A stretch of 64,000 bases of DNA, from NCBI GenBank assembly GCA_017515985.1, contig JAFWDV010000018.1, positions 39,091-103,090 of the forward strand, written 5' to 3'. Position numbers and translations under genes: made by a program. Shown piece after piece: positions 5,777 to 41,189 of the stretch. The notes below the pieces were generated by a model. It was not told where the DNA came from and did not search any database. It saw nothing but the letters and a program-made list of their open reading frames with translations. Each line of letters opens with the position of its first letter. Position 1 is the first letter of the stretch. This DNA comes from Clostridia bacterium (lineage in GTDB: Bacteria > Bacillota > Clostridia > TANB77 > CAG-508).

Positions 5777-5825
5777 TTTTATTAAAAACGGGGAAGAAGC
5801 ACATGGCAGTGCCATGTGCTTCTTC
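5777..5825 (-). terminator. Intrinsic terminator of islet-A paralog 1
   Basis: Perfect 15-bp stem GAAGAAGCACATGGC/GCCATGTGCTTCTTC followed on the minus strand by CCCGTTTTTAAT. Confidence 0.6.
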
Positions 5826-5841
5826 AGAGTTGCGAGGTTGA

Positions 5842-6051
5842 TTAATCAGGATAGTTAAGCTCGAGTTGCTGGAGCAGGACAAAAAAGTGTCCGCCCCGGT
5901 ACCCCGTGTAGCTTGTGATCTGAGGTGGAAATACCGTCTTGACGATGACCCCCTCCTCGGTGCACTCGTTCATAAACTGGTTTACAGTTTTGTCGAGTGT
6001 CCGCGCAAGTGCTGCAACGTCTGCGCCTTTGACTACGAATGTTTCCAACAT
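5842..6051 (-). CDS. Small GC-rich protein, paralog 1 (69 aa, ends ...LELNYPD); function unknown
   Basis: RBS AAAGGAGAGG 5 nt upstream of the ATG. Own terminator. Paralogous to the ORF at 6842-7054. G+C is much higher than in flanking genes. Confidence 0.6.
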   Translation of the reverse strand: MLETFVVKGADVAALARTLDKTVNQFMNECTEEGVIVKTVFPPQITSYTGYRGGHFFVLLQQLELNYPD

Positions 6052-6157
6052 AATGACCTCTCCTTTGGTTTATTTTCCCTGTGATGGGAATGGTGAGCGC
6101 ATGCTCAACCTTCTGTTATTATACCATATTATGTCAATTAATGCAAATGCTTTTGCA

Positions 6158-6200
6158 AAAAAGGGCCCCCGGCATGTGCCGAGGGCTCCCTGCGGTTTTT
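6158..6200. terminator. GC-rich hairpin with A-run/T-run flanks, downstream of the 149-aa ORF
   Basis: GGGCCCCCGGCA...GCCGAGGGCTCCC imperfect stem, then a T9 run. Confidence 0.4.
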
Positions 6201-6206
6201 TTTTAT

Positions 6207-6656
6207 TTAGATTTTGCTATCGGAATTTTTGGCGTAAATTACAGTCATATCAGTATCGACTGTAACACCAATATCCCAGCCGTACTGGTTGAGAAAATGG
6301 CGAAGTGGCTTGGTAAGAAATGCAGTCTCGTAGGCTGACGAGAAAGGTTTTAACGCCTTCTCTTTACCAAAAAACAGCTGTGGTGTGTGAAAATTTTGAT
6401 TGATATAAAGCAAATAATCATCAACATCAAGCTTTTCGGTGCCAGTCTGCGAAGGGCTAGGTACATAGAAACCACGTACTTCGCTTAAGTAGAATTTCTT
6501 ACACTGCTGGTTATCTCCTGTGATGTACGAGTACAGAAGTGCTCCATAACTGTCAAACAGGTCCTGTAAAGCAAATAAATGCCGTGCAGGAATGAGCTGA
6601 ACTTCTGCTCGTTCCACGTGTTTGGAAAAAAAACGCTTAGGTTCATAGAACTTCAC
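6207..6656 (-). CDS. GC-rich hypothetical protein (149 aa); no family recognised
   Basis: GTG start 7 nt after GGAGG. TTTACA-17-TATAAT promoter upstream. Lies between the two paralogous small ORFs. Confidence 0.55.
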   Translation of the reverse strand: MKFYEPKRFFSKHVERAEVQLIPARHLFALQDLFDSYGALLYSYITGDNQQCKKFYLSEVRGFYVPSPSQTGTEKLDVDDYLLYINQNFHTPQLFFGKEKALKPFSSAYETAFLTKPLRHFLNQYGWDIGVTVDTDMTVIYAKNSDSKI

Positions 6657-6787
6657 TTGAATTCCTCCAATCTTATCCGCAGGGTACCAAGGGTATGGTT
6701 AACCACTCAGTAATGAAATCAATTATAACATAATTAGATTACAATGTAAAGAAAAGTAGATCCTATAAGAACCGTCCCTCTCCATTC

Positions 6788-6828
6788 GAAAAAAGAAAGG
6801 CGCAAATGGTATTGCCATTTGCGCCTTT
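6788..6828 (-). terminator. Intrinsic terminator of islet-A paralog 2
   Basis: Perfect stem GGCGCAAATGG/CCATTTGCGCC followed on the minus strand by TTCTTTTTTCG. Confidence 0.6.
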
Positions 6829-6841
6829 CGTGCTCGAGAGA

Positions 6842-7054
6842 TTAATCGGGGTACGTAAGCTCCAGTTCCTGGAAAAGAAGGTAGCTTGTTACGTGTTCGC
6901 CGGGGATAGGTACGAGTTGGCGGGAAAATTTTACCTCAAGAATAATACCTTTTTCCTCGCTTTCGGTGCGGAGCTCGTTGATTTCACAATCAAGAGTCCG
7001 CATAAGAACGTCGGGTTTCAGCCCCCGTAAAGTGATCGTACGTGTTTCTTTCAT
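6842..7054 (-). CDS. Small GC-rich protein, paralog 2 (70 aa, ends ...LELTYPD); function unknown
   Basis: RBS AAAGGGG upstream of the ATG. TTGCTA-17-TATAAT promoter plus a TTCTCGAAAGAGAA palindrome upstream. The CDS is 47% G+C by manual count (100 of 213 nt). Confidence 0.6.
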   Translation of the reverse strand: MKETRTITLRGLKPDVLMRTLDCEINELRTESEEKGIILEVKFSRQLVPIPGEHVTSYLLFQELELTYPD

Positions 7055-7316
7055 GATGAAAACCCCTTTATATTTATTTTTCTCTTTCGAGAAATTGTGG
7101 ACACATTATATCATATTATGTAAAACATAGCAAGCTTATTTTAAAACAAAATAGCAAATCATATACGTACAGAGTATAATACAAGTTGTTTTAGATTATA
7201 CTATATTTTTAACAATAATTAAAAAAGTATTGAAATCCTAATTTTTTTTTGATATCATCTAAAAGAGAGACTAGATTAACAAAAGAAAAGTGAAAGGAGA
7301 ATTTAACAAAGGGAAA

Positions 7317-38226: not shown

Positions 38227-39978
38227 ATGGAAAATAATTCAGTAAGTCTAACAATAGATAACAAAATAATAAGCGTTCCAGAAGGCATAACTATTTTGGA
38301 AGCGGCAAGACTTAATGGTATTGATATCCCAACATTGTGTTTCCTAAAGGAAATTAATGAAATTGGTGATTGTAGAATGTGTATTGTAGAAGTTGAAGGT
38401 CGTAGAGGATTTACAACTTCATGTATTACTAAAGTTGAAGAAGGAATGGTTGTTCATACAAATACTCCTGCTATTATTGAAGCTAGAAGAACAATTTTAG
38501 ATTTGATTATTTCAAATCACCATATGGATTGCTTAACTTGTGTTAGAGATGGTAATTGCGAATTACAAGATTTAGCAAAGAAATTTAACATGACAGAAGT
38601 TATGTTTGAGGGAGAAAAAATTGACTATGAAATAGACGATAAGTCTCCTTCAATAGTTAAAGATTTAAATAAATGTGTACTTTGTAGAAGATGTGTGGGT
38701 GCATGTAAGAAAATGCAAGAAATTGGAGCAATTGATTCAATGAACAGAGGATTTGAATCATGTGTTTCAACAGCAAATGGATTAAGCTTAAATGATGTAG
38801 ATTGTACATTTTGTGGTCAATGTATTGAAGCTTGCCCAGTTGGAGCTCTTCGCGAAAAAGATAGCACAGAAGAAGTATGGGCTAAAATTAGAGATGAAGA
38901 AACATATACTATTGTTCAAACAGCTCCAGCAGTTAGAGCTGCTTTAGGAGAAGAATTTGGTCTTCCAATTGGTACTGAAGTAGAAGGTAAAATGCCAACA
39001 GCATTAAGAGCAATTGGATTTGATAAAGTATTTGATACAGATACAGGTGCTGACTTTACAATTATGGAAGAAGCAAATGAATTAATTGAGCGTATACAAA
39101 ATGGTGGAGTTATGCCAATGATGACATCTTGTTGCCCTGCTTGGATAAGATTTGCAGAGAAAAACTTCCCAGATCAATTAGATCATATATCAAGTTGTAA
39201 ATCACCACATGAAATGTTTGGTGCAATTATAAAATCATATTATGCTCAAAAGTTTAATATTGATCCAGCTAAAATATATGTTGTTTCAGTAATGCCATGT
39301 ACAGCTAAAAAGTATGAAGCTGTTAGACCAGAAATGGAAAATGATGGTTTGAGAAATGTTGACGCTGTTATTACAACAAGAGAACTTGCAAGAATGATTA
39401 AACAAGCTAATATTGATTTTGCTGAAATAGAAGACTCTAAATTTGATGATCCAATGGGTGAATCAACTGGTGCTGCTGTTATATTTGGAGCAACAGGTGG
39501 AGTTATGGAAGCAGCTTTAAGAACTGCAGCTGATGTTCTTGAAGGAAAAGATTTAGGTGAAGTTAATTATGAAGCAGTTCGTGGTCAAGAAGGAATTAAA
39601 AGAGCTACAGTTAATATCGCAGGAAAAGATATTAGAGTAGTTGTTGCTTCTGGATTAAAGAATGCAAGAAAGATTATGAATGAAATTAAAGAAGGAAAAG
39701 CTGATTATGAATTCGTTGAAATAATGGCTTGTCCAGGTGGATGTATTAATGGTGGAGGACAACCAATTAAATCATCTAAAATAAGGAGTAAAGTTGATGT
39801 GAGAAAATTAAGAGCAGATAGTCTATACTCAATAGATGAAAAATCTACAATTAGAAAATCACATCAAAACCAAGTTGTAAAAGGAATTTATGATGAATTT
39901 TTTGGAAAACCAGGAGAAGAAAAAGCTCACAAATATTTACATACACACTACAAGAGGCAAGAGAAATATGAAATGTAA
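38227..39978 (+). CDS. hydA: [FeFe]-hydrogenase catalytic subunit (HydA-like, multidomain)
   Basis: H-cluster motifs TSCCPAW, MPCTAKK and EIMACPGGCINGGGQP. N-terminal 2Fe-2S and 4Fe-4S domains. Confidence 0.85.
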   Translation: MENNSVSLTIDNKIISVPEGITILEAARLNGIDIPTLCFLKEINEIGDCRMCIVEVEGRRGFTTSCITKVEEGMVVHTNTPAIIEARRTILDLIISNHHMDCLTCVRDGNCELQDLAKKFNMTEVMFEGEKIDYEIDDKSPSIVKDLNKCVLCRRCVGACKKMQEIGAIDSMNRGFESCVSTANGLSLNDVDCTFCGQCIEACPVGALREKDSTEEVWAKIRDEETYTIVQTAPAVRAALGEEFGLPIGTEVEGKMPTALRAIGFDKVFDTDTGADFTIMEEANELIERIQNGGVMPMMTSCCPAWIRFAEKNFPDQLDHISSCKSPHEMFGAIIKSYYAQKFNIDPAKIYVVSVMPCTAKKYEAVRPEMENDGLRNVDAVITTRELARMIKQANIDFAEIEDSKFDDPMGESTGAAVIFGATGGVMEAALRTAADVLEGKDLGEVNYEAVRGQEGIKRATVNIAGKDIRVVVASGLKNARKIMNEIKEGKADYEFVEIMACPGGCINGGGQPIKSSKIRSKVDVRKLRADSLYSIDEKSTIRKSHQNQVVKGIYDEFFGKPGEEKAHKYLHTHYKRQEKYEM

Positions 39979-40084
39979 ATTGAAAATTTGTTAAAAATAT
40001 GGTATAATTAATTAATCGCAAATATATGCGATGACCCTGGATTTTCTGGGGTGTAAAAAATGTGCCAAGGGAGGTGTTTTCACA

Positions 40085-40276
40085 ATGGCACGAAACAACA
40101 AGGCGCGGTCTAAAGCGCCGAGAAAAGGGATATTTAGCTCTTTCTTTGAAAAAATAAGACGAGCCAAATACCAGAAGAAGGCTCAGAAAGCTGCTCAAAA
40201 GGCTGCTCGCAAGGCCAGAAAGGCCAAAATTAGGCAGATAAAGCAGAAAGCAAATCTGAGACCTAAACGGTTCTAA
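40085..40276 (+). CDS. GC-rich, extremely basic small protein (63 aa, Lys/Arg/Ala-rich; N-terminus MARNNKARSKAPRKG)
   Basis: RBS AAGGGAGG 8 nt before the ATG. Promoter TTGAAA-17-TATAAT with the palindrome ATCGCAAATATATGCGAT after the -10. Own terminator. Confidence 0.55.
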   Translation: MARNNKARSKAPRKGIFSSFFEKIRRAKYQKKAQKAAQKAARKARKAKIRQIKQKANLRPKRF

Positions 40277-40282
40277 GCAAAG

Positions 40283-40314
40283 TTCGGGGGGCATTATACC
40301 TCCCGAATTTTTTT
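40283..40314 (+). terminator. Intrinsic terminator
   Basis: Stem TTCGGGGGG...CCTCCCGAA followed by T7. Confidence 0.55.
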
Positions 40315-40432
40315 GTAAAGGTTTACAATAATTTAGAAATATGTTATAATTAACTAATCTTGCAGATGCAGGATTTCCTGGATGGAGGGTCCACCAGGTA
40401 AAGCTTTAGTCAGTGCGAAAGGAGATGTTACT

Positions 40433-41059
40433 ATGGCACTGAGAAACAGAAAGGGGCAGGCTAATGCTCCGGAGGTCATCGTGTGTGACCAGAACGGCAA
40501 TCCGATGAATGGAAGAGAGCGGAAAAGAGTAAGCGAAATCGCCGAAAGTCTGCTTTTTGCATTGTTCAGAGCGGGGTCGTTCGCAAAGAGGCGGATTCAT
40601 CAGTGGTGGGAAGACTTGGCAAATCCCGCAAAGCTGAGGAAGACCGAAGAACAGTTGCAGAGAGAAGCGCTGATGCAGGCTAGATCGGAGATTTTCCTCT
40701 CGATTATTGGCGGTATTGCGATTGTGCTTTTCATCAAGAAGCTTCCTATTCTGATTGCAATTATGGGCATTTTAGAGCTGCTTTGTGTGCTTGTACACGC
40801 AGCAGTTGTCCGTGATGCAATTGCTAGAGGCGAAAACCTCAACAATGCAGAAAAGGAAATCTCTAAGGCAACTGCAAACCTCATGAGGGCATTCGTAATC
40901 AGCGTAGTGCTGGCAACGGTTTTTGCTGTCTGGATTCACAAGAATCCTGACATGGTAGCAGACATTCCGATGCTTAGCAAGTTTGCTGATTGGCAGATTG
41001 GCATTGTGAATGAGCTGTTTGAGAAAATCAGCAGTATTATCACGAAGGCCAAAAGCTAA
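40433..41059 (+). CDS. GC-rich polytopic membrane protein (208 aa) with an N-terminus paralogous to the preceding small protein (MALRNRKGQANAPEV)
   Basis: RBS AAAGGAGA 8 nt before the ATG. Promoter TTTACA-17-TATAAT plus the palindrome ATCTTGCAGATGCAGGAT. 3-4 hydrophobic helices. Terminator after the stop. Confidence 0.55.
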   Translation: MALRNRKGQANAPEVIVCDQNGNPMNGRERKRVSEIAESLLFALFRAGSFAKRRIHQWWEDLANPAKLRKTEEQLQREALMQARSEIFLSIIGGIAIVLFIKKLPILIAIMGILELLCVLVHAAVVRDAIARGENLNNAEKEISKATANLMRAFVISVVLATVFAVWIHKNPDMVADIPMLSKFADWQIGIVNELFEKISSIITKAKS

Positions 41060-41189
41060 CCGAATGAACTTGATGGGAAAAAGTCGGGGGACGCAAGTCC
41101 CTCGCTTTTTTTGTCGAATATACATGATAAAATCATTGACCAAATACCTTAATTTTGATACTATAACAAAAGCAAAAGGAGGTGAGAGC

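Follow-up and report, generated by a model that had tools for sequence, protein, structure and literature searches.

Two gene cassettes lie in tandem between hydA and priA in a 64,000-nucleotide (nt) stretch of a Clostridia metagenome-assembled genome (MAG; assembly GCA_017515985.1, contig JAFWDV010000018.1, positions 39,091 to 103,090 of the forward strand), referred to here as the window. The downstream cassette encodes a membrane protein of 208 amino acids (aa) and the upstream one a very basic 63-aa protein. We consider it likely that they are lineage-specific, self-contained units with a structured leader RNA, the downstream one intact and the upstream one a degenerate paralogue of it. 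In each cassette, an open reading frame (ORF) with its intrinsic terminator would follow a strong sigma-A promoter and a structured 5' leader RNA. The upstream copy would have kept the promoter, most of the leader, the first ~15 codons and the terminator, but lost the apex of the second leader hairpin together with the membrane core, leaving a helix rich in Lys, Arg, Ala and Gln.

A first-pass annotation, made from the sequence alone, had drawn attention to these two GC-rich ORFs, and they do form the GC-richest kilobase of the window. In 200-nt windows from 40000 to 41100, the gap from the stop codon of hydA (39978) to the start codon of priA (41190) is 41-50% GC, against a background of ~32%. 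Judged from consensus motifs, both units are laid out as monocistronic, with 44-47% GC in a contig of 32% GC, and GC content at third codon positions (GC3) is 0.47-0.54 in the two cassettes compared with 0.13-0.20 in adjacent genes. The similar leaders, the promoters with 17-nt spacing and the GC-rich terminator of each unit that the annotation described are all present in the sequence. A consensus scan finds both promoters matching 11 of 12 consensus positions with a TG upstream of the -10 box, and a 38-nt direct repeat of 79% identity covers them. The Shine-Dalgarno (SD)/start pattern GTGCNAANGGAGNTGTT..ATGGCAC occurs exactly twice in the 64 kb, where zero occurrences are expected. Pairwise alignment confirms that the two cassettes share an N terminus and then diverge completely, since homology runs from the -35 box to approximately codon 15 and not beyond. 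Although the leaders are as similar as described, their length, counted from the presumed +1 as far as the AUG, is ~75-85 nt rather than ~60 nt. The upstream in-frame ATGs are also there (40031 and 40382), but lie inside the first and second leader hairpins, respectively, and lack an SD sequence.

The flanks of the locus are hydABC on one side and priA-def-fmt on the other. No regulator-like ORF was found in the hydA-priA gap or its flanks, and a consensus scan of the region found no antisense promoter-terminator pair. An independent ruminant-gut assembly is 100% identical to the region over 5.2 kb and an identical PriA is encoded on seven contigs; therefore, the feature is real and an assembly artefact or chimera can be rejected.

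The leader is a structured cis-acting RNA element, not a DNA operator. Eleven distinct leaders from related loci were each folded alone, and three hairpins (HP1 to HP3) recur, with HP2 and HP3 in the minimum free energy (MFE) fold of all 11 leaders and HP1 in that of 10 (HP1 of locus L007 was placed by hand). Fold z scores for the two window leaders are -2.9 and -3.5. HP1 starts 6-7 nt past the -10 box in every leader, at the predicted +1. HP2 is a bulged stem with a nearly invariant G-A-[AGG]-U-C apex (GGAAGGUCC), in which the outer and inner parts of the stem covary freely. HP3 holds the SD sequence in its loop, and its stem pairs an upstream GUGC with the GCAC of AUGGCAC. The palindromes that follow the -10 boxes had been read as a shared operator, but stem sequences vary across the 11 leaders while pairing is retained through G-U pairs and compensatory changes. 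Even the two palindromes of the window differ in sequence, and one contains a T-G pair (G-U in RNA). An operator for one regulator would be expected to conserve its sequence, so drift of the sequence with retention of pairing argues that the palindromes are not an operator.

Covariation supports all three hairpins. Pair counts were taken from a structure-guided, hand-made alignment padded with N, in which 88.4% of cells are paired compared with 73.1% in shuffles, with none of 500 shuffles reaching as high, and a control in which pairing partners were slid gave 30-40% paired cells for the same 11 leaders. Double-sided changes affect 18 of 29 pairs and cover 45 cells. HP2 is 100% paired, with compensatory changes in 8 of its 12 pairs, HP1 is 95% paired, with compensatory changes in 5 of 6, and HP3 has a well-supported five-pair core that includes nucleotides of the 5' untranslated region (UTR) covarying with nucleotides of codon 3. 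Unsupervised MAFFT alignment followed by RNAalifold independently recovers HP2 and the core of HP3 with compensatory changes. In an earlier run of the same procedure, 8 leaders were misaligned and HP2 was therefore recovered only in part.

HP3 bears directly on translation and on the protein sequence. Its stem pairs nucleotides +4 to +7, often along with the AUG, and the mean probability that +4 to +7 are unpaired is 0.03 in the leaders compared with 0.58 ± 0.25 in 32 host genes of the window. Because these nucleotides pair with the upstream GUGC, HP3 would have to open for initiation, and it would thereby throttle translation or make initiation conditional. Nor is the common N terminus of the two proteins a functional peptide module in itself: AUGGCAC is the 3' arm of HP3, and the shared 'MA' start is partly an RNA constraint, acting through this pairing together with paralogy. 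L031 is the sole member of the family that has no such leader, and its protein begins MKKK instead of MA.

Structured cis-regulatory 5' leaders of Firmicutes mRNAs include the CsrA-controlled hag-type leaders. The cassette leader resembles such elements in its hairpin at the predicted 5' end, its strong SD sequence within a hairpin loop, its AU-rich linker and its pairing over the initiation region, and in the conservation of position and structure, with covariation, upstream of homologous genes. Unlike them, it has no Rfam match and no known effector, and HP3 reaches into codons 2-3, where it constrains the N terminus of the protein. Searches against Rfam (4227 families) gave no relevant match at E ≤ 10 for the region, at the gathering threshold for the whole window or at E ≤ 1 for six related loci. 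The HP2 apex is not a known protein- or ligand-binding motif. With respect to GGA motifs, a CsrA-type feature, one lies in the SD sequence in the HP3 loop, and HP2 contains GGAAGG with its GGA in the stem. Such Firmicutes leaders are the subject of reviews (PMC3997798, PMC7509114) and of a paper on hbs (PMC5737220). By analogy with the 5'-terminal stabiliser stem-loops of Bacillus, which in B. subtilis aprE, ermC and hbs are combined with strong SD sequences, HP1 probably shields the mRNA from 5'-exonuclease. The HP2 apex, carried on a freely covarying stem, is a likely docking site for a trans-acting factor. With the same leader on paralogues at no fewer than five chromosomal sites, these genes would come as a group under common post-transcriptional control.

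The 208-aa protein belongs to an unannotated family of small (180-210 aa) proteins with 3-4 transmembrane (TM) helices, of which 16 members are known, including the window protein. A word-indexed search of 5.8 billion proteins with the 208-aa sequence gave nothing but the query. Exhaustive scanning of 1.84 billion cluster representatives with HMMER found 13 relatives at 28-40% identity, and a profile search contributed only 4 further members. The family alignment shows a basic MA-x-x-K N terminus, a WW(D/E)xLAxPxK motif and an RD motif, three hydrophobic core helices with a possible fourth at the N terminus in a subgroup with long N termini, and a C-terminal helix with the pattern FPxLxxFAxWQIxxVNEL. 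An AlphaFold2 model of the 208-aa protein built from this alignment has a predicted local distance difference test (pLDDT) score of 80.4, with values above 90 in the core.

The family is new and absent from Pfam and the PDB. Pfam, NCBIfam, PHROGs and PADLOC gave nothing above threshold for the 208-aa or the 63-aa protein, a Pfam scan of all 16 members found no common family, and a sequence profile search of the PDB returned nothing relevant. Comparison with known transporters, holins and defence proteins gave no match in sequence or fold for the 208-aa protein. No match to the family was found by tblastn in phage or plasmid records, and PHROGs, pattern scans of IMG/VR and tblastn against phage records revealed no phage or viral homologues of the cassettes. 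The closest domain is DUF4064 of Pfam, from small Firmicutes membrane proteins, which weakly matches TM1-TM3 of the window protein (E = 0.0015, 19 bits). However, this match falls below the gathering score of 32.1 bits, only 1 of the 16 family members matches, and the N- and C-terminal motifs of the family lie outside the matched stretch. The statement in the first-pass annotation that no described system has this composition thus agrees with searches of Pfam, NCBIfam, PHROGs, PADLOC, Rfam, the PDB, phages and plasmids, all of which were negative.

Relatives of the membrane protein come from rumen or ruminant-gut metagenomes. Six members occupy the hydA-priA gap (window, L007, L009, L010, L030 and L031), and others are found in the acpP-ftsY gap (L001), upstream of a gene for an AAA/zeta-type kinase (L003, L005 and L006), between genes for an LPXTG protein and mntP (L028), and between genes for a sortase and for a putative, cwlD-like cell-wall amidase (L029). 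At 10 of the 11 distinct family loci examined the promoter-leader-terminator layout is the same, the exception being L031. The leader-bearing loci have a TGnTATAAT -10 region with a -35-like box, an 80-95-nt leader and a G-rich terminator, and each is a GC-rich unit between AT-rich flanks, with an ORF GC3 of 0.44-0.64 against 0.13-0.20 in neighbours. The family appears to be confined to one narrow lineage, because leader-pattern scans of GTDB genomes, JGI metagenomes and IMG/VR gave chance matches only (each inspected) and no further copies.

Within the hydA-priA gap, the cassette is the part that varies. Among the relatives and the window, HydA is 79-88%, HydB 90-94% and PriA 82-96% identical, but the cassette proteins are just 30-39% identical. 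Alleles in this gap share 23-34% identity with one another and are as distant as paralogues elsewhere. When L009 and L030 are compared, DNA identity is 95-100% from just past the terminator into priA, 85-90% in the promoter and leader, and 20-55% in the coding sequence (CDS), so that identity changes abruptly at the edges of the cassette. The non-coding leader is therefore conserved far better than the protein, and near-identical backgrounds differ by the whole unit, which extends from approximately the -35 box through the terminator. The allelic hypervariability of the membrane protein hints at diversifying selection, for example through phage or competitor interactions. High GC3 is found in all leader-bearing members despite divergence to 23-35% protein identity.

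The upstream cassette differs from the rest of the family. Its leader scores 26 bits against a leader profile (nhmmer), compared with 41-59 bits for other leaders, and it has lost the conserved HP2 apex. The 63-aa protein is strongly enriched in Lys and Arg, though at 25 of 63 residues (39.7%) rather than the ~45% first noted, and is predicted to form one long helix from residue 18 to 58. Among 5.8 billion proteins, the word-indexed search retrieved the query alone, no counterpart exists at any other family locus examined, and comparison with histone-like, ribosomal and other basic binders in Pfam and NCBIfam gave sub-threshold noise only (e.g., H-NS_N, E = 0.37). Residues 19-43 show a weak, non-significant similarity to the helix in the TM2-TM3 loop of the family. 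A frame-shifted family gene was considered as the source of the ORF and rejected, as no frame matches the profile significantly (best 3.6 bits, frame 0). In L009, which carries the closest relative of the window membrane protein, the equivalent position (2650-2795) has an ORF-less unit (fold z = -5.2) in which a promoter 81% similar to that of cassette 1 leads only to a long hairpin and a terminator. The 63-aa ORF is most likely a truncated membrane-protein paralogue and not a conserved partner, and the simplest reading is that cassette 1 is an old tandem duplicate decaying in different ways in different genomes.

Further observations concern this gap. The ORF-less unit of L009 could be a small RNA or a decayed cassette, and L009 also has a DUF4160/DUF2442 gene pair in the hydA-priA gap (2020-2579). 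In the window, hydA lacks its own terminator (39976-39985) and the -35 box of cassette 1 lies 2 nt past the hydA stop codon, so read-through into cassette 1 is possible; L007 and L009 do possess a hydA terminator.

A different origin for the 63-aa ORF, as a functional, newly evolved mini-protein that binds RNA or ribosomes or associates with membranes, possibly feeding back on the leader RNA, is conceivable but doubtful. Its SD sequence, start codon, HP3 and terminator are intact, the frame is open over 63 codons with a cassette-like GC3 of 0.47, the helix is confidently predicted, and the same sequence is found in independent assemblies. Yet those identical copies are uninformative because they represent the same strain, the absence of homologues leaves purifying selection without evidence, the sequence is of low complexity and repeat-like in its K/A/Q composition, and the ORF is entirely lost in the related genome L009.

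Phage morons are autonomous promoter-gene-terminator units of deviant composition inserted between conserved genes (PMC4378225). Like morons, each cassette couples one ORF to a sigma-70-type promoter and an intrinsic terminator of its own, sits between two conserved co-oriented genes, has a GC content (0.44-0.47 versus 0.32) and composition unlike its neighbours, and differs between otherwise near-identical genomes with no recognisable recombinase site. Unlike morons, the cassettes occupy housekeeping gaps of the chromosome (hydA-priA, acpP-ftsY and others) rather than prophages, form a multi-copy paralogous family with a common conserved structured leader, and keep their anomalous composition despite deep divergence. 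In a rather unlikely alternative, the cassettes are ordinary islets devoid of special biology, recently acquired from a GC-richer donor (a phage, plasmid or other bacterium), and their leaders are alike simply through shared ancestry. The GC3 contrast with neighbouring genes, the moron-like architecture, the other GC-rich ORFan islets in the window and the swapping of the cassette between near-identical flanks all fit such an acquisition. However, the searches described above found no phage, plasmid or viral-contig relatives, the family is restricted to one AT-rich lineage at syntenic sites, members at 23-35% identity all retain high GC3, and the leader is more conserved than the CDS and carries compensatory changes, which indicates selection on the RNA.

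More speculatively, the units may be exchangeable chromosomal mini-cassettes of a class not described before, or 'chromosomal morons'. The leader could then serve both as a post-transcriptional control element read through the invariant HP2 apex and, with the flanks, as a homology anchor for swapping; the membrane proteins could be under diversifying selection, for example for phage exclusion or immunity; and the high GC3 could be a by-product of recombination (GC-biased conversion) or of selection for nuclease-resistant mRNA. We regard this proposal as tentative.

The model offered with the first-pass annotation, in which a membrane effector and a nucleic-acid-binding basic partner are controlled by one repressor acting on palindromic operators after the -10 boxes, is very improbable. 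The two genes adjoin, and the units are paralogous with the same promoter type, leader and N terminus, so they are probably controlled alike; a helical protein of 40% K/R with an isoelectric point (pI) of 12 could bind nucleic acid. Two findings that the annotation had named as counting against its model did not turn up either: the basic protein has no homology to ribosomal or histone-like families, and the membrane protein is not a known transporter. The supposed partner, however, is an orphan among 5.8 billion proteins and is missing at all other family loci, cassette 1 has the most degenerate leader of the whole set, the vicinity contains no gene for a regulator, and the palindromes vary, between the two copies and across the 11 leaders, in the pairing-preserving manner described above.

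In AT-rich genomes, an intergenic island of high GC content is often a structured RNA, and a large non-coding RNA with spurious ORFs would suit both this GC-rich island and the disagreement of gene callers over its ORFs, but we reject it, since the 208-aa ORF has 15 protein homologues with conserved motifs, hydrophobic helices and a confident AlphaFold2 model, CDS identity at the DNA level falls to noise while protein motifs persist, and Rfam gives no match. A type I toxin-antitoxin system (a hydrophobic peptide of <60 aa with an overlapping antisense RNA) was rejected as well: the proteins have 63 aa (hydrophilic) and 208 aa, and no antisense promoter-terminator pair was found.

Variable surface lipoproteins of Mycoplasma (vsp/vlp/vsa) combine a conserved 5' UTR and N terminus with variable bodies. 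The cassettes resemble them as paralogues in an AT-rich, Firmicutes-related genome, with a highly conserved upstream region and first codons, a very divergent remainder, tandem arrangement and truncated copies. They differ in that the cassette family has no lipobox or signal peptide, its full-length members have no internal tandem repeats, every copy has its own promoter, and no site-specific recombinase or invertible element was seen.

Several points weigh against the account of paired cassettes with a structured leader that we prefer. The structural alignment was made by hand from single-sequence folds and leans towards structure, a bias mitigated by the agreement of the single-leader folds with unsupervised MAFFT and RNAalifold. 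The shuffle statistics overstate significance because the 11 leaders come from related genomes. The transcription start site, monocistronic status and expression are predicted from consensus motifs only. As the scans gave no further copies, a 'regulon' of this kind would reach no further than a single narrow lineage. Synteny, shared ends and a similarity below significance are what support a truncation origin of the 63-aa ORF, which could instead be a functional novel mini-protein.

The features of the locus are collected in Table 1.

Table 1. Elements of the hydA-priA gap (window coordinates; HP, hairpin; SD, Shine-Dalgarno sequence).
Feature	Position	Strand	Remarks
Cassette 1 promoter	39980..40008	+	TTGAAA, 17 nt, TATAAT; TG at 40000-40001; 11/12 consensus
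Cassette 1 HP1	40015..40032	+	AUCGCA..UGCGAU; at predicted transcript 5' end; first palindrome earlier read as an operator
Cassette 1 HP2, degenerate	40034..40052	+	Outer stem retained; U-rich loop instead of conserved GGAAGGUCC apex
Cassette 1 HP3	40062..40091	+	GUGCCA:UGGCAC over start codon and codon 2; SD AGGGAGGU (40068-40075) in loop
63-aa polybasic ORF, NCBI IKE01_06185	40085..40276	+	15 K, 10 R, pI ~12
Cassette 1 intrinsic terminator	40286..40312 (scan: 40286-40304)	+	GGGGGGCAUUAUACCUCCC and U tract; similar to cassette 2 terminator
Cassette 2 promoter	40322..40350	+	TTTACA, 17 nt, TATAAT, upstream TG; 11/12 consensus
Cassette 2 HP1	40357..40374	+	AUCUUGC..GCAGGAU, one U-G pair; second palindrome earlier read as an operator
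Cassette 2 HP2	40377..40398	+	CCUGG-A-UGGA GGG UCCA CCAGG; family-typical GA-NGG-UC apex
Cassette 2 HP3	40410..40442	+	CAGUGC:GCACUG (codons 2-3); SD AAAGGAG in loop
208-aa membrane protein, NCBI IKE01_06190	40433..41059	+	Family of small 3-4-TM proteins
Cassette 2 intrinsic terminator	41085..41112 (scan: 41085-41104)	+	Right-hand border of variable unit
priA promoter	41136-41164	+	Downstream of cassette 2 terminator
In-frame upstream ATGs	40031 and 40382	+	Within HP1 and HP2; no SD

Database annotations of the two genes conflict. ENA has a 147-aa antisense ORF in place of the 63-aa ORF (L034 2662-3105, minus strand, equal to window 39851-40294, minus strand), and lets the membrane protein begin at the in-frame ATG further upstream, for a length of 225 aa (L034 3193-3870, plus strand, equal to window 40382-41059, plus strand). 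Because gene callers disagree, the 208-aa and 63-aa NCBI proteins look unique in exact-match look-ups.

Other GC-rich units occur in the window. A second islet (5790-7130, minus strand, 0.425 GC) contains three monocistronic units, each with a TGnTATAAT promoter, a strong SD sequence and a GC-rich terminator, and with leaders unlike the HP1-HP3 motif. They encode proteins of 70 aa (7053-6841), 149 aa (6656-6207) and 69 aa (6050-5841), none with a significant match in Pfam, NCBIfam or PHROGs; the 70- and 69-aa proteins are paralogues that both end in ...ELxLxYPD. A third unit (34850-35680, plus strand, 0.425 GC), directly upstream of hydC, consists of a promoter of its own, a pair of ORFan ORFs of 130 aa and 107 aa that overlap, and a terminator, and in L031 (2696-3418) the two ORFs are fused into one 240-aa gene of lower GC3 (0.30). 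From the islets in the window and near hydC it follows that GC-rich, fast-evolving ORFan islets recur around the hyd operon. In L010 (6420-7030), a GC-rich monocistronic cassette for a 149-aa protein (MAKYEAEGYCPEKD..., GC3 0.47) stands immediately upstream of the membrane-protein cassette, with a similar promoter, a different leader and no Pfam, NCBIfam or PHROG match.

Elsewhere in the window, the 3' end of a tRNA gene (60507-60590) recurs ~130 nt downstream in a GC-rich stretch: the 11-nt sequence CACCATCGGCA stands both at 60580-60590 and at 60714-60724. This arrangement (60507-60730) may be the remnant of an integration event. A pattern match at window position 60944 belongs to an unrelated 91-aa ORF. 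The marine metagenome contigs L021, L022 and L026 encode an ORF beginning MALKRNKSNI..., which superficially resembles the MALRNRK start; its leader is built differently and we consider it a chance match. This small ORF follows a consensus promoter whose -10 box is immediately followed by a hairpin.

The locus presents a new family of small membrane proteins and a new RNA motif, a candidate cis-regulatory element whose covariation is unusually clear, both absent from Rfam, Pfam and the PDB, and illustrates that an apparent shared N-terminal peptide can stem from an RNA hairpin that extends into the coding region. It also shows autonomous cassettes of a moron-like kind that lie outside prophages and are swapped whole between genomes with 95-100% identical flanks, and a GC3 anomaly that outlasts divergence to ~30% protein identity. 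Together these features make the cassettes a tractable case, in AT-rich Clostridia of the gut and rumen, for the movement of small accessory genes and the persistence of anomalies in composition.

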